A stretch of DNA of 64,000 nt. Origin: Chloroflexota bacterium. GTDB taxonomy: Bacteria; Chloroflexota; UBA11872; UBA12225; JAJDUF01. Positions 375 to 61,773 of the stretch are shown one piece after another. The stretch is taken from assembly GCA_965214295.1 (NCBI GenBank), contig OZ243944.1:821395-885394 (forward strand), in the 5' to 3' direction. Positions within the stretch are counted from its first letter, which is position 1. Each line of letters starts with the position of its first letter. The notes beneath the pieces were generated by a model that had not been told where the DNA came from, made no database searches, and worked only from the letters and a program-made list of their open reading frames with translations. Position numbers and translations under genes: made by a program.

Positions 375-1217
375 ATGCCGCCGCAGCCCGCACCCGCTCT
401 GATCGCCAGCCCCCGTAATCCGCGGATCATGCAGGTCCGCAAGCTGGCCACCCGCAAGGAGCGCAGCCGCAGCGGCCTGTTCTTCGCCGAGGGCATTCGG
501 CTCGTGGTCGAGGCGATCCGCAGTGACAGCGAGATCACGTCGCTGATCGTCGCCCCGGAGCTACTGACCAGCGACTTCGCTCACGACCTGATCGCCCGGC
601 AGGTGGGCCGCGACATCCCCAGGTTGGAGGTCACGACCGCAGTGATGCAGCGCCTCGCGGCACGCCAGCATCCGCAGGGACTCGCGGCCGTCGTGCGCCA
701 GCGCTGGCACCCCCTCGCCACCGTGCGGCCCGGCAACGAGCTGTGCTGGGTTGCCCTCGACGCTCCCCAGGACCCCGGCAACGTCGGCACCATCCTACGC
801 ACGCTCGACGCGGTTGGCGGCGCCGGACTGATCCTCCTCGGCGACGCCACCGACCCGTATCATCCCGCGGCCGTGCGCGCCAGCATGGGCGCCATCTGCA
901 CTCAACGCTTGGTACGCACGACGTTTGCCGAGCTATGCACCTGGAAACAGACGCATGGGTACCGGCTCGCCGGCACCGCAGTCACCGCCACGCGCGACTA
1001 TGACGCCGTTTCCTACGACGCCCCGCTCGTCCTGCTCATGGGCAGCGAGCGGGAAGGGCTATCGGCCAATCAGGCGGCAGCATGCGACGACCTCCTACGC
1101 CTCCCCATGGTCGGTCGCGTCGACTCACTCAACCTCGCGGTGGCGACGAGCGTCATGCTCTACGAGATATTCCGGCAGCGCCTCTTCATAGTCTCCAACT
1201 TCCACCTCCGAGCTTAG
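375..1217 (+). CDS. TrmH/SpoU family RNA 2'-O-methyltransferase
   Basis: 280-aa ORF with SpoU methylase motifs (DAPQDPGNVGTILRTLDAVG, LLMGSEREGLS, SLNLAVATSVMLYE); TAG stop. Confidence 0.85.
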   Translation: MPPQPAPALIASPRNPRIMQVRKLATRKERSRSGLFFAEGIRLVVEAIRSDSEITSLIVAPELLTSDFAHDLIARQVGRDIPRLEVTTAVMQRLAARQHPQGLAAVVRQRWHPLATVRPGNELCWVALDAPQDPGNVGTILRTLDAVGGAGLILLGDATDPYHPAAVRASMGAICTQRLVRTTFAELCTWKQTHGYRLAGTAVTATRDYDAVSYDAPLVLLMGSEREGLSANQAAACDDLLRLPMVGRVDSLNLAVATSVMLYEIFRQRLFIVSNFHLRA

Positions 1218-2108
1218 GTAGACTGGCAATGTGCCGGCAACCGGATAACTGCGGGTGATCCGGGGGTCCACGGCTGCATACAGTGTCGTGGTCCAGCCCC
1301 CACCGGAGACCCCGGTCATCGAGACCGACCGAAAGTCATGCTCTTGCTCGACGTAATTCAGCAGAATGGCAACCGGTTCGAGGAAGAGCTTGAGCGACGA
1401 AAACGTAGCGGTATCCAGATAGCGCAGATGGTCATGCGTGTGTAGTCGTAGCTTGCCGAAACGAGGGAGATCAACAACCGGCTGATTGTTCATACCGAGC
1501 AGCGGCATGGCAAAAGCAGCAACCGCATAGCCCTTCCCGAGGAAATAGGCAATCGTTTCTTTGCCCAAGAGAAATCCGCCACGATGCCCCTGATGATAGA
1601 TCATGAGCTTGTGATTATCGCGCACCGGATGGAGCAGATAAATAATAGAGTTGATACCATGATCCATCGCTACTGTGATCTGATCAATACTTTTGAGGTT
1701 GTCCAAGCTGCTAAAATCAGGGTCGAAGATATCCTTTGTAATCAATGTAGTGGATTGCTGCGGAAACCCCCGATCATGCCAGATGTAACGGACAAGCTCG
1801 TCTCTCCGTGCCAAGAGCTTGCTTTCGCTCGACAGGGTTATCAGGCGCGGCACGTCAGTACCGTATGGCGCGGAGCTACCGGCGGGTTCGGGGTTCCGCC
1901 GCTCCTGATCGAGGAGGACCTGCACGTGTGTAGCCTCGAAGTCCGGCGCAAAGAGCGCTGTCCGGATACTCGCCAAGAGCTCCTGCGGCAGGATGAGGTT
2001 GACTGCGATGAGGCACAGCGCCAGCAAGAGGTAGACCGGGGGCGCAAAAAGCCGCCGAATCTCCGCGCGATGGCGGAGTGCGGCAAACGAGCGGCGCAGC
2101 CGCAGCAT
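1125..2108 (-). CDS. membrane-anchored alpha/beta-hydrolase-like hypothetical protein
   Basis: ORF 1125..2207; internal ATG at 2108 (MLRLRR...) precedes a hydrophobic anchor (VYLLLALCLIAVNLIL); GVSGGGW resembles a GxSxG nucleophile elbow. Start uncertain. Confidence 0.45.
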   Translation of the reverse strand: MLRLRRSFAALRHRAEIRRLFAPPVYLLLALCLIAVNLILPQELLASIRTALFAPDFEATHVQVLLDQERRNPEPAGSSAPYGTDVPRLITLSSESKLLARRDELVRYIWHDRGFPQQSTTLITKDIFDPDFSSLDNLKSIDQITVAMDHGINSIIYLLHPVRDNHKLMIYHQGHRGGFLLGKETIAYFLGKGYAVAAFAMPLLGMNNQPVVDLPRFGKLRLHTHDHLRYLDTATFSSLKLFLEPVAILLNYVEQEHDFRSVSMTGVSGGGWTTTLYAAVDPRITRSYPVAGTLPVYLSSEVEVGDYEEALPEYLVEHDARRHREVE

Positions 2109-6150: not shown

Positions 6151-7707
<1,557 letters not shown>

Positions 7708-7764
7708 TCACAGTGTAATTAGCCTAGTGTAGCGGCGGCTGCGACCCGGCCGCAACCACTACCA

Positions 7765-7975
7765 CGTGCAGCGCAGGGCCTTTCCAAAGTCGCCGCCAAC
7801 CCTGCCATTCCGAGCAGCCTTCCCAACGTCATTCCGAGCAGCCTGTCCCCTGTCATTCCGAGCGGCCTGTCCCCTGTCATTCTGAGCGGAGCGAAGAATC
7901 TCGGCCTCGCGAGTGCGACCCGTCGCTCCGCTCAGAGCCGACACTGAGCCTGTCGAAGTGGTGACATATGGCAAG
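7765..7975. repeat. composite REP-like repeat block, tandem gtcattccgagc(a/g)gcctgtccc units plus gtcattctgagcggagcgaag palindrome
   Basis: Three tandem units of about 22 bp followed by a palindrome ctgagcggagcgaag...cgtcgctccgctcagag; inverted relative to 5975-6140. Confidence 0.8.
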
Positions 7976-8155
7976 GCCCTGCGCGCAGCGACAGCCTCCC
8001 CGCTATCAGGAGGCTGTCGCCACCTTGCCGTTTCGGGCCACCGGCAAGAAGGCGCGTGGCCGGTAGCGCCGGAAAATCACCTCCAGCCCCGGGTAGATGG
8101 CCAGCACCGTCAGCCACCGTTGCCTCGGAGTTTTCCTGCAACCCGGTTGAGCTAC

Positions 8156-13447: not shown

Positions 13448-13595
13448 CGTCCCTGGCCTCCCTCCCCACACTCTAGCACACCCCCACCAGGGATAGATAC
13501 AACCCAAGCCGTAGGGGCGCTCACATCCGTCATTCCCGCGCAAGCCGGAATCCGCGCCCCCCGCCACGCGGGAGGACCACAGGGGGCAGACCATC

Positions 13596-17654: not shown

Positions 17655-17770
17655 GGAGACCTTTGCAGAAGTCGTCATTCCCGCGAAAGCATGTCCCGTA
17701 CCCCGATACGGGGCGGGAATCCGAACAGCGGCCCTCCCAGGTTGGCGAGCGTGGAGTCACGACCACTGAG
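17655..17770. repeat. about 115-bp MITE-like element built around gtcattcccgcgaaagc-atgtcccgtaccccgatacggggc-gggaatcc (second copy 20508-20625)
   Basis: Near-identical copies at 17655-17770 and 20508-20625 share the flanks gagacctttgcagaagtcgt and ggccctcccag...gtcacg. A shorter form is at 2625-2700. Confidence 0.8.
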
Positions 17771-19632: not shown

Positions 19633-19962
19633 CCTCTCCCCAGCCTGGCCATCGTTGATATAGCTGTTGAGTTGGCCTAGAGCGTGTCTGCAAACTAGCT
19701 TTTAGGTAGGGGCATCATTCATGCCCCCCCATCATGGCAACTCCCCTCCCGTCATGGCAGCTCCCCTCCCGTCATGGCGGCTCCTCCCCGTCATTGCGGC
19801 GCAGGCCACAATCCAGGCCCACCAGGAAGCCACGCATCGCCCTCTGCCGACTGGTACTTTGCAAACACGTCCTAGTTCAGTTTTCTCAGCACCACTAGGG
19901 GGAGCCAATCCGGTTAGGCATGACCCCGGCCACACTCCCGCTCCCTATGCCTTTGGCCCAGA

Positions 19963-21138: not shown

Positions 21139-21634
21139 CCCTCTACCTCCCTACATGAGCTATAGCACGCTGCACCCGTCCCCCCGCCGCCAACGCCGTA
21201 GGGGCGCAACATGTTGCGCCCGTCCCCCGCACCGGAGACCTTTGCAAAATCGTCATTCCCGCGCCAGGAGACCTTTGCGTAATCCGTCATTCCCGCGCAA
21301 GCGGGAATCCAAAAGCGACACCTCCCAGGTGAGTGGGAGGTGAGCATGGCTACCCCAGCACTTCATCCGGGTAGTTATGCAAAGGTCTCCGCCAGCGGGA
21401 ATCCACCCCCTCTCCCCGTGGGAAAGGGCTGGAGTGAGGGCCGCTGGAGTGAGCGCAGCCTCAGCGACGGACCGGCACCGCCATCGCTCCCCTGCCCTGC
21501 CAAGGAAGGGGCCGGGGGGTAGGCCCAATCCGCCCCACACAAAAAACTACCCCTGTCATCACCATCTCCCAGCCTCGACTTACTCCCCCTCTCTATCGCT
21601 TGGCGATGGAGAGGGGGACGGGGGTGAGGATAGG

Positions 21635-23341: not shown

Positions 23342-23555
23342 CGTGTCCCGTTCTCCACTCCGAGACCTTTGCATACCTCGTCATTCCCGCGAAAGCGGGA
23401 ATCCACCGAGGCAACTCGCACTCCGACTCGTCCACGGGTAGTCATTCCCGCACCAGCGGGAATCCACCGCCGTAGGGGCGCAACATGTTGCGCCCGTCCC
23501 CCCGCACAGCGGGGGGACCATAGGGGGGGCCGGTATTATCCTCACCATCTGGTGC

Positions 23556-24707: not shown

Positions 24708-25122
24708 AGCCTATACTGCCCCGGCCGGCCCCTCTATGGTTCCCTGTCAAGGGTAGTTTTGGGAGAGGGGCGCGATTCATTGCACCGCCCCGTCATTGCG
24801 GCGGAAGCCGCAATCCATGCCCCCTGACTGTAGCTCGGGGACGGTCCGTTGCCTCCCCTGGATCTTGCTCCGAAGGAGGGCTAAGGAGCCGACAAGGGTA
24901 GGTTTTTTGCGGAGGGGCGCGATTCACCGCGCCTACACGCTGGTCATTCCGCCTGCACCGGGTAGTCCAGGGGCGAAAGCATATCCCGTACCCCGCTACG
25001 GGGCCGGAATCCAGGACCATTCGTGGCCCCCGGTCCGTCTGGATGCCGGCTTCCGCCACCATAAGGGAGACCGAGGAGAGGTACGTAGCTCCACACACAA
25101 AAACCTACCCTTGTCAGCGAGA

Positions 25123-26103: not shown

Positions 26104-26175
26104 CGTATCTCGCCCGTTTCCTCTCCGGCTCCCGTCTCGTCACTGCGGCGGAAGCCGCAGTCCAGGCCCCTTCCG

Positions 26176-27516
26176 TCATTCCCGCGCAAGCGGGAATCCA
26201 TCCGCACACTGCACAATGCCCTGCTCGGCCCATTCGGCCACCGTCTCCGGCGAGCAGCCCAGCATGTCAACCAGCACGGCCTCGGTGTGCTGGCCGAGCA
26301 ACGGCGGCGGTCGCGGCGGCGCGTCCGGGTGAGCACCGCGGTCGGCCGGCCGGCCATAGCGCCAAGGTAGCACCGTAGTAGGCACCGGGCCGATGGGATG
26401 ATCCAGCTCACGCACCAGCCCGCGCGCCTGCACTTGCGGGTGCGCCGCCACGCGGTCCATCGTATTGATCGGGCCACACGGCACGCCCTCCCGCTCCAAC
26501 CGCGCCAGCCACTCGTCGGCCGGCCGCGTCCTGAACAAGGCTTCCAGCTCCGGCAAAAGCTGGTCGCGGTGGCGCACCCGGTCGCCGTTCGTCGCAAAGC
26601 GCGGATCGGCGGCGAGGTCCGGCAGCGCGACGGCGCGGCAGAAATGCTGCCAGAGCCGGTCGTTGTTCACCGCTATGGTGATCTCGAACGTCGCTGTCTC
26701 GAAAACCTGGTAGGGCACAATATACGGCAGCGCATTGCCCATCCGTCCCGGCAGCTTCCCGGAGAGCAGTGTGCCGACGAGGTGATACCCGAGCAGGGAG
26801 ACCTGCCCCTCCAGCAGCCCCACGTCAATGTATTGCGCCGCCGCCCTGTCCGCGTGCGCGGCTCGCTCCCGCGCCAGCAGCGCCCCGAGCAGGGCGGCCA
26901 GCGCGTTGGTCCCGGCGAGAATATCCGTTTCCGCGACCCCGGCCTTCACCGGCGGTCCGTCCGGGTGGCCGGTGACACTCATCATACCGGCCTCGCCTTG
27001 CATAATCAGGTCATAGCCGGGTTTCCAGGCATCCGGCCCATCCTGACCGTAGGCCGAGATCGAGCAATACACCACGTTGGGACGGACCGCACGCACTGCC
27101 TCATAGCCCACCCCCAGCCGGTCCGCGACCCCGGGGCGAAAGTTCTCGATCACGATATCCGACTGCGTGGCCAGCTGGAGACAGAGCCGTACCCCCGTCG
27201 CGTCCTTCAAGTCGAGCGCCACGCTGCGCTTGTTGCGGTTCATCGAGAGAAAGTAGGAGCTTTCACCGCCGTAGAAGGGCGGGCCCCAGTGCCGAGCCTC
27301 ATCGCCGGTCGCCGGTCGCTCGACTTTGATAACATCGGCGCCCAAGTCACCCAGCAGCATCGTGCAGTACGGTCCGACCAAGGCACGAGTCAGGTCGAGC
27401 ACGCGGTAGCCGGCAAGCGGCAGCGCCGCAACGAGCGGCTGTGATGCGCCAGGTCTGCACCGCCTATTTCCAGTTGATTGTGCAGCCCTGGCGGCGTCAT
27501 GCGAAGAGAGACTCAT
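26176..27516 (-). CDS. family III CoA-transferase (CaiB/BaiF-like)
   Basis: LAGYRVLDLTRALVGPYCTMLLGDLGADVIKVE signature. The start is possibly internal, and the last about 8 codons come from a REP element. Confidence 0.85.
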   Translation of the reverse strand: MSLSSHDAARAAQSTGNRRCRPGASQPLVAALPLAGYRVLDLTRALVGPYCTMLLGDLGADVIKVERPATGDEARHWGPPFYGGESSYFLSMNRNKRSVALDLKDATGVRLCLQLATQSDIVIENFRPGVADRLGVGYEAVRAVRPNVVYCSISAYGQDGPDAWKPGYDLIMQGEAGMMSVTGHPDGPPVKAGVAETDILAGTNALAALLGALLARERAAHADRAAAQYIDVGLLEGQVSLLGYHLVGTLLSGKLPGRMGNALPYIVPYQVFETATFEITIAVNNDRLWQHFCRAVALPDLAADPRFATNGDRVRHRDQLLPELEALFRTRPADEWLARLEREGVPCGPINTMDRVAAHPQVQARGLVRELDHPIGPVPTTVLPWRYGRPADRGAHPDAPPRPPPLLGQHTEAVLVDMLGCSPETVAEWAEQGIVQCADGFPLARE

Positions 27517-32882: not shown

Positions 32883-33133
32883 GCCGCGGCGCGGCGGCGA
32901 CCGGCAGCCGACCCCCGTCCCATCTACTCAACCATGCAGGAGTACTCACGGTTTCGCCGCCCCGCCGTCGGCAAGCATAGCACGGCCCTGTAGCTGTAAC
33001 GCACCCAGCGCTGGGTACCGAACCTGGGCGGACTCTCATGGTCACGTTTGACGGCTGACTCGAAAGCAGGCTAAGATGTAGGCAAGGTCGCCTCCGGGTG
33101 AATACCAGGGAAGGTAGCACAGGGGGAACGCAC

Positions 33134-33685
33134 ATGAGTGAAGCCGGCAGCACCACACAGACGGGTGGATTCTTCGGTAAGTTGCTTGCGCCGTTTCGCG
33201 AGTTCCGGGAGCGCGAGCGGCAGCGCCAAAACCGGGAGCAAGCCGAAATCCGCCGCCGCCTCGACGCATACGTCCGCGAAGTTGAGGAAGACTACGCCAA
33301 CGGGCAACACATCGAACCCAAGTCCTATAAGGAGCTAACCGCCGGTGAAGTGCGTCAAGGGACGACGCCATCCTACGAGCACGTCCAGAGCACCGGCACG
33401 ATCCGGCTCCATATGCTCCTGCCACCGGAACAGATGGACCGTGCCCAGCTCGTCCAAGCGCTGGCTCGCCCGATGGATGAAGAGCTGCCCGACCTCTTCG
33501 ACGTCAAGCCGCACGAGGGCCGCTCCAAGGAGCACGGCTACGTCATCATCGGTCCGGCCGAGCAGTTCTTGCACACCCGCGGCGAGAACTGGCGTCTCTA
33601 CGTCGAGCTAACCTACAGCATGGCCTCCCACGGCGGTCGTGCGACGATCAACCGCCGGTTCTACGTGCTCGACATTGTGCTGTAG
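33134..33685 (+). CDS. hypothetical protein
   Basis: 184-aa ORF with a charged coiled-coil-like N-terminus; no recognisable domain. Confidence 0.4.
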   Translation: MSEAGSTTQTGGFFGKLLAPFREFRERERQRQNREQAEIRRRLDAYVREVEEDYANGQHIEPKSYKELTAGEVRQGTTPSYEHVQSTGTIRLHMLLPPEQMDRAQLVQALARPMDEELPDLFDVKPHEGRSKEHGYVIIGPAEQFLHTRGENWRLYVELTYSMASHGGRATINRRFYVLDIVL

Positions 33686-33706: not shown

Positions 33707-35203
33707 TTGCCGCTGATGTCTACCGGGCACGATTTGCTCACGCTTCCCCTCGCCGCAACGGCCCAGCTACTCGCCCGCCGGCAAGTCTCGCCCGTGGAAT
33801 TGGTCGCGGCAGCACTCGACCGCAGTGCCGCCGTGCAGCCGCACCTCAACTGCTACCTCGACCTCTACGCCGACCAAGCGCTGGCAGCGGCCCGCCGCGC
33901 CGAAGCGGCGTTCGCGGCCGGCCAGGTACTCGGCTCTCTCCACGGCATCCCCTACGCGCCCAAGGACATCTTCACCGAGCCGGGTGTCCGCTGCACGGCC
34001 GGCTCGCGTATTCTGGCCGATTGGATTCCCAGGCGTGAAGCGACGGTATTGGCTCGCCTGCGCGCCGCCGGCGCCATCAGGATCGGCCGGACAAATCTGC
34101 ACGAATTCGCCTACGGAATCACCAACGTCAATCCGCACTATGGCCCCGTCCGCAATCCCTGGCAGCGCGACCATGTGACCGGCGGCTCCAGCGGCGGCTC
34201 GGCCGCGGCGGTGGCCGCCGGCGCAGCCGGATTTTCGCTGGGTACTGACACCGGCGGATCGGTACGCCTGCCCGCCGCCCTCTGCGGGATCGTGGGCCTG
34301 AAGCCGACGTATGGCCGTGTCTCGCGGACCGGGCTGCTGCCTCTAGCGTGGTCGCTGGACCACGTCGGGCCGATGACCCGCACCGTCGCCGATGCCGCCC
34401 TGGTGCTGGCGGCCATCGCCGGCCACGACCCCTCCGACGCCACCTCATCACGGACGCCCGTACCGGCCTACGCCGCCGGGCTGGAGGGCAGCCAGACGCG
34501 CCGGACGCGCACCACACCTGGCACCGTCCGTGCGCGTTTGGCGCGTCACCTGAGCGGGCTACGACTAGGCGTGCCCCAGGAAGACGGTTGGGGCGAGGTA
34601 GACCCGGAAATCCGCGACCTGGTCCAAGCGGCCGTCTCCACGCTGCGTAGCCTCGGGCCGAGCGTCGAGCCGGTGTCACTGCCGGCGCTCGATGACTTCG
34701 GCCCCGCCTTCGACCCGATCATTCGCTCCGAAGCCACCACCGTTCACCTCAAATGGCTGCGCTCGCGCCCCGACGAATACGGAAACGACGTGCGCGAGCG
34801 CCTGGAGCTTGGCTTGGCGCTCCCCGCGACGGCCTACCTCACCGCCCAGCGTGTCCGCACGGTCATCAGTGAGCGGATGCGTGCCGTGTGGGAGCAGGTA
34901 GACCTCCTCGCACTCCCTGCCATTCCGGTGCCGGCCCCCAGAATTGACGAGGGCCTGGTGAGCGTACAGCCGGGGACGCCGCCCACGGACGTGCGGCGCG
35001 TCCTCACCCGCCTCACCAACCCCTTCAACTTGCTCGGCCTCCCGGCGATCTCGGTGCCCTGCGGCCTCACCAGCCACGGCTTACCCGCCGGCCTCCAGCT
35101 TGTCGGGCCACCCTTCACCGAGCAGCGTCTCCTCCGAGCCGCCCACGCCTACGAACAAGCCACCGCCGACACACCGGACCGGCACCCCCCGCTGCCGTCC
35201 TAG
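33707..35203 (+). CDS. amidase (amidase-signature family, GatA-like)
   Basis: GIPYAPKDIF, GGSSGGSAAAVAAG signature. It contains a degenerate copy of the palindromic element at 34504-34547, encoding RTRTTPGTVRARLARH. Confidence 0.88.
   Translation: MPLMSTGHDLLTLPLAATAQLLARRQVSPVELVAAALDRSAAVQPHLNCYLDLYADQALAAARRAEAAFAAGQVLGSLHGIPYAPKDIFTEPGVRCTAGSRILADWIPRREATVLARLRAAGAIRIGRTNLHEFAYGITNVNPHYGPVRNPWQRDHVTGGSSGGSAAAVAAGAAGFSLGTDTGGSVRLPAALCGIVGLKPTYGRVSRTGLLPLAWSLDHVGPMTRTVADAALVLAAIAGHDPSDATSSRTPVPAYAAGLEGSQTRRTRTTPGTVRARLARHLSGLRLGVPQEDGWGEVDPEIRDLVQAAVSTLRSLGPSVEPVSLPALDDFGPAFDPIIRSEATTVHLKWLRSRPDEYGNDVRERLELGLALPATAYLTAQRVRTVISERMRAVWEQVDLLALPAIPVPAPRIDEGLVSVQPGTPPTDVRRVLTRLTNPFNLLGLPAISVPCGLTSHGLPAGLQLVGPPFTEQRLLRAAHAYEQATADTPDRHPPLPS
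34504..34547. repeat. degenerate copy of the in-gene palindromic element, inside the amidase CDS
   Basis: gacgcgc-accacacctggcaccgtcc-gtgcgcgtttggcgcgtc; it shares the core cacacctggcacc. Confidence 0.6.
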
Positions 35204-35296
35204 GGGGTGCATACCTTATACTGACAATAGCGGTCTGAGAACGGATCGTCGCGCTGAACAGCGTGCCCAACAGCCCAGAATTGAGCAGGGGGAAAC

Positions 35297-35893
35297 ATGA
35301 ACCAAGAAGAGGATCCCAGTCCACTGCGGCTTACTCAGGGCACCAGGCGTGTCTACACCTTCAAGGACCTGTCGAATGCTTGTTTTTGTTCCCTAGAGCT
35401 GGCAAGAGAAAGTGAGAAGGGAAGATTCTATAACTGCATGTTCAGCATGATTGGTGCAGCATTTGCCGTAGAAGCCTACCTCAACCATCTCGGACAGTAT
35501 AAGTTTGGCCAGAAGGAATGGGGGAAAATAGAACGAAAGATGAGGCCAGAATCCAAACTACGAGTGTTGGCCAAGCTGATCAACCACAATCTCGACTTCA
35601 GCAGGCGGCCGTGTCAGACGTTTACCGATATGTTCAGGTACCGAAATGCAATTGCCCATGCCAGGACTGAAACCCTTACCTTTGAGGAACAGACATACGA
35701 TCCTGGGGAAAGCCCAGCTGAACCCGAGACCAAGTGGGAACAAGCGACAAAGCTGGAAACGGCAGAACGCTTCTACAGAGACGCCCGGGAGTTGGTACGG
35801 CAACTGCATGAAGCGGCTGGACTGCCTGAACACCAACTCTGGTCCTCAGGAATGAGCGAATGGAGTGGATCGCCCGTATCAGAACACGAGTAG
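35297..35893 (+). CDS. HEPN-like (DUF4145/Abi-like) protein on a low-GC island
   Basis: GC about 50% against 68% background; all-alpha prediction; MFRYRNAIAHARTE fits the HEPN Rx4-6H motif (R-N-x-x-A-H). Confidence 0.4.
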   Translation: MNQEEDPSPLRLTQGTRRVYTFKDLSNACFCSLELARESEKGRFYNCMFSMIGAAFAVEAYLNHLGQYKFGQKEWGKIERKMRPESKLRVLAKLINHNLDFSRRPCQTFTDMFRYRNAIAHARTETLTFEEQTYDPGESPAEPETKWEQATKLETAERFYRDARELVRQLHEAAGLPEHQLWSSGMSEWSGSPVSEHE

Positions 35894-36082
35894 AGCACGA
35901 AATCACCACCCCACCGCTGGACTCCAGCTTGCGCCGCAATGACAGGCGGCCCCACGCGCCTCACCTTTCCAGCCCCCTCCCCCGCTGCGGCGCGGGGACA
36001 AAGCTACGGCATGCTGCGCTCAGGGTGCTCGCGGCCATCTGGAGCGCACGACCTTGATGTATGGTAACGCATAGGGTACCAT

Positions 36083-36418
36083 GTGTCTATGATCACTATC
36101 CGGGAGTACATTGATGACCAAGGCCGTAGTCCATTCGCTCGCTGGTTCAACCGGCTCAACGCCCCGGCTGCGGCCAAAGTGGCCGTCGCTCTCGCCCGGA
36201 TAGAGACCGGGAACCTGTCCAACGTCAAGAGCGTGGGCCGTGGCGTGTTGGAGTACCGCATTCATTTTGGCCCTGGCTACCGGGTCTACTTTGGCCGGAT
36301 CGGCGACACCCTCATCATCCTGCTGGGCGGTGGGACCAAGAAGCGGCAACAGCAGGATATCGCCAGGGCACAGACCCTTTGGCAGCAGCACCAACGGCGT
36401 AGGCGAGAGGAGACATAG
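36083..36418 (+). CDS. addiction-module killer protein (HigB/RelE-ParE superfamily, Gp49-like)
   Basis: IREYIDDQGRSPFARWFNRLNAPAAAKVAVALARIETGNLSNVKSVGRGVLEYRIHFGPGYRVYF matches the TIGR02683-type toxin family. Confidence 0.75.
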   Translation: MSMITIREYIDDQGRSPFARWFNRLNAPAAAKVAVALARIETGNLSNVKSVGRGVLEYRIHFGPGYRVYFGRIGDTLIILLGGGTKKRQQQDIARAQTLWQQHQRRRREET

Positions 36419-36419
36419 A

Positions 36420-36809
36420 GTGATGGCCCTCACACGTGATTTCAAGGAATCCATCCAAGCTCGCGTCCAGCGTGACCCCGACTTCCGAGCGCACCTGCTG
36501 CAAGAAGGCATGGAGTGCCTGCTTGCCGGTGACCTGGCTACCGGCAAGGCCGTGCTGCGGGACTACATCAACGCCGCTATCGGGTTTAGCGAGTTGGGTA
36601 GCCTGACCGATAAATCACCCAAGAGCCTCATGCGTATGTTCGGTCCTCACGGCAACCCCCAAGCCGGCAACCTGTTCGAGGTCATCAACCGTATCCGGCA
36701 GCACGAAGGGGTGCAGTTTGAGGTGCGGGCAATCAAGTCCGGCTCACAGCGGCCACGCCCCGAACCGGCCAACGCGGCACCCGCAACCCGGACCGCCAGC
36801 CCCACTTAA
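36420..36809 (+). CDS. addiction-module antidote protein (HigA-family HTH antitoxin)
   Basis: It starts 2 nt after the toxin stop; the HTH segment SLTDKSPKSLMRMFGPHGNPQAGNLFEVINRI matches the TIGR02684-type antidote family. Confidence 0.7.
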   Translation: MMALTRDFKESIQARVQRDPDFRAHLLQEGMECLLAGDLATGKAVLRDYINAAIGFSELGSLTDKSPKSLMRMFGPHGNPQAGNLFEVINRIRQHEGVQFEVRAIKSGSQRPRPEPANAAPATRTASPT

Positions 36810-36949
36810 AGGCCGAGGCGGTCGTAGTATCCGTCGGCCCTCAGCCTGAAACGATGGCTGGAGTCGACCACGGGCCGAAAGCTGACAGCTGATCACGGTC
36901 CGCCCCCTACACGGTGCTCTCTGTGGGTAAAAAGAGCGAGCCGTCGCGC

Positions 36950-37165
36950 CTAGACCCGCTCGATGGCCGAGGCCGGGAGCCACGTCTCCCGGTCGTCGCG
37001 CAGGCGCACCAAATACCAACCGGGGCGCTCCTCGACGATAGAAAGCTCCACGCCGGCGTGCAGGGGTGCGCGGAAGCTCGGCTCATAGCCCACCGGGTCC
37101 GGCCCCTTGCGACCCACCACCTGCTCGGCCACGATGACCCCCTCGTTCGCACGTCGGCTCCCCAC
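36950..37165 (-). CDS. BatE-like C-terminal SH3b domain fragment (separated from the TPR part by an in-frame TGA)
   Basis: GWYLVRLRDDRETWLPASAIERV SH3b motif; same frame as 37187-37777, with a TGA between them. Confidence 0.5.
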   Translation of the reverse strand: MGSRRANEGVIVAEQVVGRKGPDPVGYEPSFRAPLHAGVELSIVEERPGWYLVRLRDDRETWLPASAIERV

Positions 37166-37186
37166 CTCGTCTACGACCAGCGATCC

Positions 37187-37777
37187 TCAGCACAGCGCAG
37201 CGACCACGGCGAGCATCGCCACGGGCAGACGTAGCGAGAACCGCGCTAGGTTGAAGAGCTTCAGCGCGGCCAGTAGCCAGATCAGATCGAACGCCAGCAC
37301 CAAGACGGCCAGCCGGGGCAGCACGGGCAAGCCGGTGTGCCAAGCCAGGACCGTGTCCAGCACCCGGCGCTGGGGCGGCACGGGGATGCTGTCGCGCACC
37401 TGACTGCGTGCAAAGGTGAGGTTGCCTTGCAGGTTTCGGTCCTCCGGCGTCAGGCGCTCGGCGCGACGGTAGTTCAGAATAGCTCTCCCCACGTCGCCCT
37501 TGAGCAGGTAGGTGTTCGCCAGATTGTAGAAGAGCTTGCTATTGCGGACATTGCCCGCGCTGATGATCTTCTCGAACCGGACAATACTCTCCTGATAGAG
37601 CAGCTTGGCGGCTGCCGGGTCCTCCGGCGCCACCCGCGTCGCTTGCCGGAACTTCTCGCTCGCCTGCTCCAACAGACCTCGCAGCGCCTCGGTCCCCAGC
37701 GTCGGCTCGGCAGCGAGGCCGGTGGCCGGCAGCAGCACGATCACAACCGCGATGAGCACTACCTTTAGCCGCTGCAT
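37187..37777 (-). CDS. BatE-like TPR-repeat protein with signal peptide and C-terminal TM helix
   Basis: Signal peptide, TPR helices (LFYNLANTYLLKGDVGRAILNYRRAERL), C-terminal hydrophobic helix; last gene of the Bat operon. Confidence 0.6.
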   Translation of the reverse strand: MQRLKVVLIAVVIVLLPATGLAAEPTLGTEALRGLLEQASEKFRQATRVAPEDPAAAKLLYQESIVRFEKIISAGNVRNSKLFYNLANTYLLKGDVGRAILNYRRAERLTPEDRNLQGNLTFARSQVRDSIPVPPQRRVLDTVLAWHTGLPVLPRLAVLVLAFDLIWLLAALKLFNLARFSLRLPVAMLAVVAALC

Positions 37778-48436: not shown

Positions 48437-48728
48437 ACTCCCTCCCCATCTCCCCTCAACTGTTGTCTCTTCCCGTCCGGCAAGCGTCTCCCCTCCGAGC
48501 GACCGGTGACTATAGCATGGGGGGTGTCCGGCAGGAGGTGGGCCGCGACTAGGCTCCCGTCATGGCGGCGGAAGCCGCCATCCAGGGCCATTCGTGGCCT
48601 CCTGGTCGACCTGGATTCCGGCCTGCGCCGGAACGATGAGGGGTGAGGCGCAACTCCCATCGAAAAACCTACCCCTGTCAGGGGTGAGGGAAGGGGCCGG
48701 GGGCTAGGTCGAAATCACCGGTCCGGAG

Positions 48729-60936: not shown

Positions 60937-61773
60937 TGTATCGCGCCAGGGCCTATCCGGCCCCTACCCCGTCATCGCGCGCCCCCGCTTCATTGCGGCG
61001 CAGGCCGCAATCCCAGGGGCACGATTGCTCGCGCCTAGATGCTCGTCATTGCGGCGCAAGCCGCCATCCAGGCTAGCGGCCGTGAACTGGAAGTCCCACC
61101 GGGCGCTCCACCAACCGGCAGCCGCCATTTTTCAGTGCCGGGCCTCCCCCCGTTGCGTTCCGCCGCCCGGCCGCGATGTACCTGTACGTGGGCGTGGGCA
61201 CGACCGCTGCCGGCACGCAACGACGCGCCTCCAGGCTCCCCTGTCAAGAGCTCACCGGGGAGCCGGGCCGTCCTGCGGCCCGGCTGACGTGCCCCGCAGT
61301 CCCGCGGCTTCGGCCGCACGCACACTCGCACACTTGCTCTTTGCGCTCTTGCTCTTTGCACTCTTGCTCTCGCGGGCACGCCAGCCCACGCCCACACACC
61401 ACTACCCCACACTCAACCGGATTAACCCACCGAGAGACCGGCGGACAAGAGGTGGTACGCAGGTAGAGGTGGTACGCAGGTAGGGGCGCCATTCATGGCG
61501 CCCAGAGCCGGCCCCGAGCGTGACCAGGGGCCGCGATCAACCGTGCCCCGCCCCTGGCGGCTGCCGCCGCAGTGCCTGCACCGGGGAAACCCGGTGCCGA
61601 GCGCCAAGGCGCGGTGAATCGCGTCCCTACACAAAAAACCCACCCCTGCCGGCGGCCGGGTCACTGGCCACGAGCCACTGGTCAGGGGGCCACGATTGCT
61701 CGCTCACCTCGCTGCGGTCCTCCCCCAGGCGCCCGCGCGCCCGGCCCGCCGGTTGAGGATACCGGCTCAACCG

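Follow-up and report, generated by a model that had tools for sequence, protein, structure and literature searches.

A predicted stand-alone HEPN ribonuclease gene and a HigBA-like toxin-antitoxin pair form independent accessory cassettes at a variable Chloroflexota locus

Introduction

The core of HEPN proteins is a bundle of four helices, in which helices 2 and 3 are often separated by an insert, and an acidic residue in helix 2 is typical of their active sites (PMC3710099). The described MAE families carry fused N-terminal domains (HEPN/RES-NTD1, Toprim-NTD1, Schlafen) or lie in operons with ParB/methylase and ParA/Soj genes (PMC3710099). HepS of the Gifsy-1 prophage is a single-protein HEPN abortive-infection (Abi) system, a tRNA anticodon nuclease that is activated by a phage tail-tip protein (PMC13043305). 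Here we report on a patch of low guanine-plus-cytosine content (GC) at positions 35204–36809 of a 64,000-nucleotide (nt) stretch of Chloroflexota contig OZ243944.1 (hereafter the window). In this patch, a gene for a predicted HEPN protein of 198 amino acids (aa) is followed by genes for a Gp49/HigB-type toxin and its putative antitoxin. We give a probability of about 0.65 to the reading that these genes represent two independent accessory cassettes, i.e. a predicted HEPN ribonuclease (RNase) without a linked antitoxin and a conventional type II toxin-antitoxin operon.

The 198-aa protein resembles the MAE_28990/MAE_18760-like group (PF18737; PMC3710099) in its Rx4-6H motif with an asparagine after the arginine, in the acidic residue of helix 2, and in its four-helix core with an insert. 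In contrast to the described MAE families, the present family is single-domain and has no conserved partner gene across 42 loci, and its structural model adds paired N- and C-terminal beta strands. On PF18737 (HEPN_MAE_28990), 23 of 39 homologues gave sub-threshold matches; the more distant member P0173 just passed (27.1 bits against a cutoff of 26.8), and the 198-aa protein itself stayed below threshold. Its best and sole Pfam signal was RiboL-PSP-HEPN (PF18735; E = 0.008, residues 88–131), a match that includes the RNxxxH motif. The same model was matched by 27 of the 39 homologues; no match reached the gathering score (best E 7e-5), and all were confined to the C-terminal half of the model.

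The best structural matches came from type II/VII toxin-antitoxin systems of the HepT/MntA (HEPN-MNT) kind (7bxo, 8xeh, 1jog; PMC4621449, PMC7641770), whose toxins are likewise small HEPN RNases with an Rx4-6H motif. Here, in contrast, no MNT gene adjoins the HEPN gene in the window or in the 42 loci, the protein is 60–70 residues longer, and the E-values of the fold matches are weak. HepS is alike in concept, being a partnerless HEPN protein that both senses and executes, and sets a precedent for antitoxin-free HEPN toxins. A profile search of the PDB gave no sequence relationship between the two, and the structural match to HepS was poor (9oik_A, E 2.8, TM 0.29). Moreover, HepS is encoded by a prophage, whereas the present family is chromosomal, and none of its members turned up in phage genomes. 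The second cassette compares with the HI1419/HI1420-type pairs (TIGR02683, PF05973; HigB1, 7nbu/7awk): its toxin scores above the cutoffs, and it has the same toxin-first order with a 4-nt gap. In contrast, the partner of the toxin matches neither the NCBIfam antidote model nor any Pfam helix-turn-helix (HTH) model, but belongs to a separate, very large and highly conserved 105-aa family, and here it has an extra tail.

Results

Two cassettes at one indel hotspot

An amidase gene and a convergent Bat operon on a Chloroflexota chromosome enclose the low-GC patch, which is a small indel hotspot. Its features in the window are as follows (GC3, GC at third codon positions; REP, repetitive extragenic palindrome).

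33707–35203, plus strand: amidase gene, left anchor of the hotspot (Pfam Amidase, 1.8e-121; GC 70%, GC3 0.82)
35204–35296, plus strand: spacer 5' of the HEPN gene; a GGAGG-like ribosome-binding site precedes the ATG by about 8 nt, and a 26-nt indel is shared with L003 and L008
35205–36030, no strand: extent of the HEPN cassette, the segment missing from L051 (blastn)
35297–35893, plus strand: HEPN gene, 198 aa, stand-alone, predicted RNase (GC 51%, GC3 0.56)
35471–35488, plus strand: codons of E59-A-Y-L-N63-H64, the helix-2 motif with the acidic residue (at least 90% conserved, n = 39)
35642–35659, plus strand: codons of R116-N-A-I-A-H121, the Rx4H (RNxxxH) HEPN catalytic motif (alignment, n = 39)
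35910–36902, no strand: extent of the HigBA cassette, the segment missing from L006, L007, L009 and L052 (blastn)
35917–35943, plus strand: degenerate copy of a REP-like palindrome, right arm intact, left arm decayed
36061–36082, no strand: palindrome ATGGTA-N10-TACCAT, candidate operator/promoter element read from the sequence
36089–36418, plus strand: Gp49/HigB-type toxin of the RelE/ParE family, 109 aa (TIGR02683, PF05973, PHROG 3445)
36423–36809, plus strand: antitoxin-position gene downstream of the toxin, 128 aa, predicted helical HTH-like DNA binder
36950–37777, minus strand: BatE-like gene with TPR and SH3 domains, right anchor of the hotspot (in-frame TGA at 37187–37189)

The site was compared by blastn with loci from related Chloroflexota metagenome-assembled genomes, drawn from a set labelled L001–L052. 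A shared block of PNTB, an aminotransferase, a PD-(D/E)XK protein, a 183-aa open reading frame (ORF) and the amidase faces the convergent Bat operon. Between amidase and Bat operon, the relatives differed from the window.

L001/L006, L007 and L052: HEPN gene only; window segment 35910–36902 is gone, with about 30–40 nt in its place
L003 and L002/L008: HEPN gene and a 200-nt HigA remnant, 90% identical to window 36400–36600
L051: HigB (109 aa) and HigA (126 aa), no HEPN gene; 67 unrelated nt take the place of window segment 35205–36030
L009: HEPN gene broken at window position ~35450 by an element of ~880 bp with terminal inverted repeats

The HigA remnant in L003 and L002/L008 consists of the first 57 codons of the antitoxin, while the toxin and the C-terminal half of the antitoxin are gone. 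Because relatives carry the HEPN gene without HigBA and HigBA without the HEPN gene, the two have been gained, lost and decayed independently. They are two independent accessory cassettes, both of which are intact in the window. Function of the HEPN gene does not require HigA, nor does HigBA require the HEPN gene to function.

The GC of 35204–36809 was 58.0%, compared to a mean of 66.1% across the window. The lowest-GC 600-nt segment of all 64 kb was 35201–35800 (51.5%, z = -4.35), and the lowest-GC 1600-nt segment also fell within the patch (z = -3.6). A first-pass annotation of the window had proposed a low-GC, accessory island between the amidase gene and the Bat operon; the dip as the lowest of the 64 kb, its position and its variable presence among relatives all bear this out, and the three ORFs (198-aa, toxin and antitoxin-position) were all found at the stated coordinates. 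The dip was uneven. It was mainly due to the HEPN gene (51.4% GC, GC3 0.56), whereas the toxin and antitoxin genes were only mildly low (61–62% GC, GC3 0.74–0.75) relative to the flanks (GC3 0.82 in the amidase gene and 0.80 in BatD). A promoter scan found no plus-strand promoter, and terminator counts were at chance level. Direct repeats that might mark a site-specific insertion were short and at chance level only.

The 198-aa protein

A database search returned 50 homologues of the 198-aa protein, none of which (0 of 50) had a Pfam domain or an informative name. The ORF product includes FRYRNAIAHARTE. In an alignment of 39 homologues, H121 was invariant and R116 and N117 were at least 90% conserved, as was a second block, E59-A-Y-L-N63-H64-L-G.

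An AlphaFold2 model was built on the homologue alignment, and reached a predicted local distance difference test score (pLDDT) of 91 and a predicted template modelling score (pTM) of 0.84. It comprises helices at residues 21–38, 43–70, 72–79, 84–94, 106–120 and 153–173, and strands at residues 11–18 and 186–193, so that the protein is mostly but not wholly helical. R116–H121 is placed at the end of helix 106–120 and E59 within helix 43–70, and the two helices at 72–79 and 84–94 are inserted between HEPN helices 2 and 3. As modelled, the protein fits the published HEPN layout (PMC3710099) on every point. In a Foldseek search of the PDB, the top three matches were the HEPN toxins 8xeh_D, 7bxo_F and 1jog_A, with probabilities of 0.97, 0.90 and 0.69.

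NCBIfam gave no match above threshold for the 198-aa protein. A search of the PDB with the family alignment profile returned only a spurious match to Nup62, and a search of viral folds in BFVD returned one marginal, uncharacterised Siphoviridae protein (E 0.12, TM 0.44), which is uninformative. We regard the 198-aa protein as a credible member of the HEPN superfamily, in a family placed at the periphery of the MAE_28990/MAE_18760-like clade.

The first-pass annotation had assigned the protein to HEPN from its Rx4-6H motif, and with R116 and H121 conserved (n = 39) and a fitting model and Foldseek result this call was right. Its description as all-helical holds for most of the chain, but not for the N- and C-terminal strands. 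Its DUF4145/Abi-like label found no counterpart: the protein had no Pfam match to DUF4145, Abi_2, Swt1 or RnlA at E <= 1, and none of these was among the top families of the 39 homologues.

A widespread family without a conserved partner

An exhaustive profile search retrieved 2,195 cluster representatives (50% identity) at E <= 1e-3, of which 386 at E <= 1e-30. Nearly all are single-domain proteins of 180–200 aa. A scan of one genome per species yielded 41 loci with a patchy distribution over Chloroflexota, Beta- and Gammaproteobacteria, Cyanobacteria, Nitrospira, Acidobacteriota, Planctomycetes and Desulfobacterota. The family has no name, no entry in PADLOC and no usable profile.

All-against-all BLAST of 448 ORFs located within 4 kb of the family genes revealed no conserved partner gene across 42 loci. 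Recurrent neighbours were limited to the Chloroflexota synteny block and three small clusters. Downstream ORFs of about 200 aa were common, and were mutually unrelated (a GST, an IS1595 transposase fragment, a DUF2971 protein, or no match). The first-pass annotation had seen no MNT-type neutraliser, which was confirmed: the window holds no MNT nucleotidyltransferase ORF, and a regular-expression search found no MNT-like motif in the small neighbouring proteins of the 42 loci.

Immediate neighbours were further classified at 36 non-syntenic loci (136 proteins). HTH_3 occurred in 3 of these 136, and the family was unlinked to Gp49 toxins at these loci. A minority of the neighbours matched PADLOC models (24 models, mostly by one protein each), with PDC-S31 matched by three proteins and single instances of PD-Lambda-2, SIR2, SduA, DarG, methyltransferases and TnsB. 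Tn7-like genes and MqsRA adjoin one family locus, and an integrase lies near another. PDC-S31 is a PADLOC candidate defence gene. In L035 (8511–9149), L040 (8590–9222) and L045 (6173–6988) a PDC-S31/DUF2971 protein, with matches up to 8.5e-78, adjoins the HEPN-family gene on the same strand. In these three divergent loci the two genes may form a two-gene variant.

Evolution of the HEPN gene

Nucleotide identity to the relatives was 89–92% in the last 650 nt of the amidase gene and 74–86% in the HEPN gene, with the drop starting exactly at the amidase stop codon. The amidase as a whole was 90–93% identical, while the spacers around the HEPN gene are short and poorly conserved (40–81% identity between relatives). 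Among orthologues, nonsynonymous divergence (dN) was 0.10–0.35 for the HEPN gene versus 0.02–0.08 for the amidase, BatD and a 195-aa ORF upstream of the amidase; synonymous divergence (dS) was 0.37–1.10 versus 0.14–0.40, and dN/dS was 0.22–0.40 versus 0.10–0.39 (mostly 0.13–0.25). The HEPN gene is a real coding gene under purifying selection that evolves 4–5 times faster than its flanks. The ratio of HEPN dS to amidase dS varied by pair from about 1.1 to 3.8. This spread hints at allele exchange or deep allelic lineages, and codon-bias effects could also contribute.

A recent acquisition does not agree with a HEPN gene that is syntenic in at least six relatives at 55–81% amino-acid identity. 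Nor do the relatives carry the three genes as core genome at native GC: the HEPN gene stays low in GC and is variably present. Its GC3 was 0.52–0.57 in every syntenic orthologue. Across the family, the gene had a lower GC3 than its neighbours in 35 of 42 loci (median difference 0.09; Wilcoxon p = 5e-6). An AT shift that has endured at a single locus despite such divergence is not accounted for by recent horizontal transfer alone. Options are selection for poor codons, repeated allele replacement, and silencing-related constraints. One homologue, P0022, is scrambled and possibly pseudogenised.

The toxin-antitoxin pair

The toxin ORF (36083–36418) is open from a GTG at 36083. Its likely start is the ATG at 36089, which gives 109 aa, because the L051 orthologue and a public 109-aa gene call agree on this start. 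The toxin matched TIGR02683 ('upstrm_HI1419', RelE/ParE family) at 6.2e-30, with 103.4 bits against a cutoff of 62.85. It also matched Pfam Gp49 (PF05973; 25.6 against a cutoff of 23.9) and PHROG 3445 'toxin' (6e-25), and it weakly resembles HigB1 of M. tuberculosis. The toxin stop codon is at 36416–36418 and the ATG of the next gene is at 36423, in toxin-first order. Hence, the Gp49/HigB-like toxin with a 3' antidote gene of the first-pass annotation was recovered, while the overlap it described between the two genes is instead a gap of 4 nt.

The 128-aa product of the antitoxin-position gene consists of a conserved 105-aa core and a disordered Pro/Ala-rich tail of about 23 residues. It has at least 5,644 homologues with about 75% identity over the core, and NCBI names one member of a family cluster 'transcriptional regulator'. 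Fifty columns were invariant among 15 diverse sequences of this family (homologues P0051–P0170). No match to the protein was found in Pfam, in NCBIfam, or in sequence and profile searches of the PDB. Its AlphaFold2 model is all-helical (pLDDT 74) and disordered from residue 103, and the best Foldseek matches were the Xre-type HTH proteins HicB3, ClgR, C.EcoT38IS and HipB (E >= 1.5, probability 0.3–0.6).

The same toxin and antitoxin are paired in L051. In L048, a member of the antitoxin family is preceded by a truncated toxin homologue that is 68% identical over the aligned part. The palindrome ATGGTA-N10-TACCAT ends 7 nt before the higB ATG, and in L051 its arms are kept while the spacer is changed. 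Read from the sequence, it is a reasonable candidate for the operator, too short to be significant alone. The pair is an ordinary HigBA-like module with a Gp49/HigB-type toxin of the RelE/ParE family. Its sole point of interest is that a very common antitoxin family lacks a curated profile.

Repeats and other features of the locus

The window contains a dispersed REP-like palindrome, GGATT(CCCGC/GCGGC)-TTGC-(GCGGG/GCCGC)AATGAC, with 13 matches of 17 nt where 0.56 were expected.

REP-like sites 1–7: 242–258, 13529–13545, 17674–17690, 19790–19806, 21286–21302, 23380–23396, 24792–24808
REP-like sites 8–13: 26139–26155, 26175–26191, 35927–35943, 48559–48575, 60989–61005, 61045–61061

Twelve of the 13 copies are on the minus strand, and the two stem variants both keep the pairing. 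Several copies are followed by GCAAAGGTCTCC. One copy lies within the patch, between the HEPN gene and higB (35917–35943); part of it is also present in L008, and none of it in L051. The other two spacers of the patch hold no REP-like copy. The first-pass annotation had stated that host palindromes colonised the spacers of the island. The repeat family is real, but within the patch it amounts to one degenerate copy.

At the right anchor, the BatE-like gene truly ends at 36950 rather than at 37187. It spans 275 codons and aligns in one frame with 275-aa orthologues at 87–90% identity (tblastn), so that the right spacer is 36810–36949 instead of 36810–37186. At the position of the in-frame TGA, four relatives have Phe or Leu. 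The TGA may reflect a nonsense mutation or a sequencing error, or mark a pseudogene.

In L009, the element in the HEPN gene (7150–8028 of that locus, 65% GC) has perfect terminal inverted repeats, CTCAGAGCCTGTACGA ... TCGTACAGGCTCTCAG. It encodes no recognisable transposase, and its ORFs were unmatched in NCBIfam; the insert resembles a miniature inverted-repeat transposable element or an insertion sequence. In L003 (6917–12606), the BatE gene breaks off at a point equivalent to window position ~37400, and the Bat operon is replaced by a 150-aa gene with weak PIN similarity, a 97-aa gene (together VapBC-like) and ORFs without a family match. The PIN-like pair itself had no NCBIfam match. As L003 carries this pair and the unmatched ORFs, the amidase-Bat neighbourhood has also taken up other cargo.

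Left of the patch, the 195-aa ORF (33098–33685, plus strand) upstream of the amidase is conserved at 87–91% identity and syntenic in all relatives; it had no Pfam or NCBIfam match. The only part of the amidase gene that does not align with the relatives is an Arg/Thr-rich linker at 34493–34549 (around SQTRRTRTTPGTVRARLARH), a variable insertion. The second-lowest GC stretch of the window (1151–1750; 52%, z = -4.2) lies inside a 360-aa ORF on the minus strand (1125–2207), which had no NCBIfam match and may be another foreign or accessory gene.

Discussion

On the two-cassette reading, the HEPN protein would most likely be a metal-independent RNase. By analogy with other HEPN enzymes, its active site would combine R116-N117-x3-H121 of helix 3 with E59/N63/H64 of helix 2, probably across a homodimer. 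Because no inhibitor is linked to the gene, the protein should be intrinsically latent, weakly expressed, or not toxic. Following the example of HepS, it probably lies latent until a trigger, for example phage infection or stress, activates it; weak expression or lack of toxicity are alternatives to such latency. The HigB toxin would presumably cleave mRNA on the ribosome, as its relatives do, and the helical DNA-binding antitoxin would neutralise it and autoregulate the operon, perhaps at the ATGGTA-N10-TACCAT palindrome. We infer a role of the HEPN gene in defence or abortive infection because the gene is accessory, fast-evolving and patchily distributed.

Several observations weigh against this reading. 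A stand-alone active RNase without an inhibitor would be toxic, and the mechanism of its latency is wholly inferred. The 136 immediate neighbours of the family are mostly housekeeping or metabolic enzymes. No family member was found in 50,697 phage genomes, and among 72,556 plasmids there was one weak match. The 198-aa protein had no match in PADLOC (PADLOC-DB v2, E <= 1) or PHROGs; it reached 16.6 bits against a gathering score of 28.4 on PF18735, and stayed below every Pfam HEPN cutoff. The Foldseek matches to HEPN structures were weak (E 0.3–0.8, TM ~0.4–0.6), and so were those that point to an HTH fold of the antitoxin (pLDDT 74, Foldseek E > 1).

A rival reading, built on the first-pass annotation, is that the patch is one horizontally acquired mini defence island, in which two RNase toxins cooperate and the HEPN gene, too, is under the control of the HigA-like HTH protein. 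The three genes are indeed adjacent, on the same strand and alike in their lowered GC, and the loci that keep HigA sequence (the window, L003 and L008) share a 26-nt indel upstream of the HEPN gene in the alignment, and so form one haplotype group. Yet at least five relatives without an intact HigA (L003, L006, L007, L008 and L052) have a HEPN gene that is itself intact and subject to purifying selection, HigBA is intact in L051 without any HEPN gene, the two cassettes differ in composition (GC3 0.56 versus 0.75), and at the 36 other family loci there is neither linkage to Gp49 toxins nor frequent HTH_3. The presence/absence pattern, with the HEPN gene alone, HigBA alone, and the HEPN gene with a decayed HigA all at the same site, largely refutes this model, which we now hold to be very improbable. 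Since the cassettes are independent and HEPN-only loci exist, HigA cannot be the regulator of the HEPN gene. The defence-island context did not hold either: here the flanks are housekeeping genes, and at the 36 other loci defence or mobile neighbours are few.

An unlikely but more serious rival is that the HEPN protein is the toxin of an addiction module whose antitoxin went unrecognised, be it an unlinked protein, a small RNA or a tiny ORF. A neutraliser accompanies most of the small HEPN toxins characterised so far (HepT/MntA, RnlA/RnlB, AbiEii-like; PMC3710099, PMC7641770, PMC8266594), the gene has stayed at one locus in the manner of an addictive element, and its low GC could hide a structured RNA. 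However, the 42 loci offer no conserved flanking ORF and no MNT motif, Rfam gave nothing in 34900–37300 even at E <= 1, and the spacers are short and vary between relatives; moreover, both the clean loss of the gene in L051 and its disruption in L009 came with no visible compensation. Comparably improbable is a benign accessory protein that processes or binds RNA, or a catalytically inert one, whose low GC is due to family-wide constraints on amino acids and codons and not to a foreign origin. This would suit the mostly metabolic or housekeeping neighbours, the lack of PADLOC matches, the absence from phages and (one weak match aside) plasmids, an AT shift that is family-wide and found even in long-syntenic copies, and a dN/dS below 0.4. 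Against it, the catalytic residues R, N, H and E are strictly conserved, which argues for enzymatic activity, and the patchy phyletic spread, the presence and absence in close relatives, the 4–5-fold dN, and the occasional PDC-S31, Tn7-like, integrase and toxin-antitoxin neighbours are typical of conflict genes.

A bolder version of the two-cassette reading, which we put forward tentatively and consider rather unlikely, is that the family is a widespread antitoxin-free, single-gene HEPN abortive-infection system that directly senses a phage component. It would be like HepS in logic and unrelated to it in sequence. The AT-shifted codon usage (GC3 ~0.55 in genomes with GC3 ~0.8, kept through dS of up to ~1) would then be a selected device that keeps expression of the RNase low, not a footprint of recent transfer.

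Nothing in the locus is categorically new: it joins an undescribed family of the well-known HEPN superfamily to a routine and independent toxin-antitoxin pair, and is a variable locus rather than a new coordinated defence system. With related Chloroflexota genomes carrying every combination of the HEPN and HigBA cassettes, it is a clean natural experiment and direct proof that 'toxin' genes side by side in a low-GC patch do not necessarily belong to a single system. If the HEPN protein is an active, trigger-gated RNase, a fairly large family would join the short list of single-protein HEPN immunity or Abi systems, and would offer a simple model for how a HEPN nuclease stays silent without an antitoxin.

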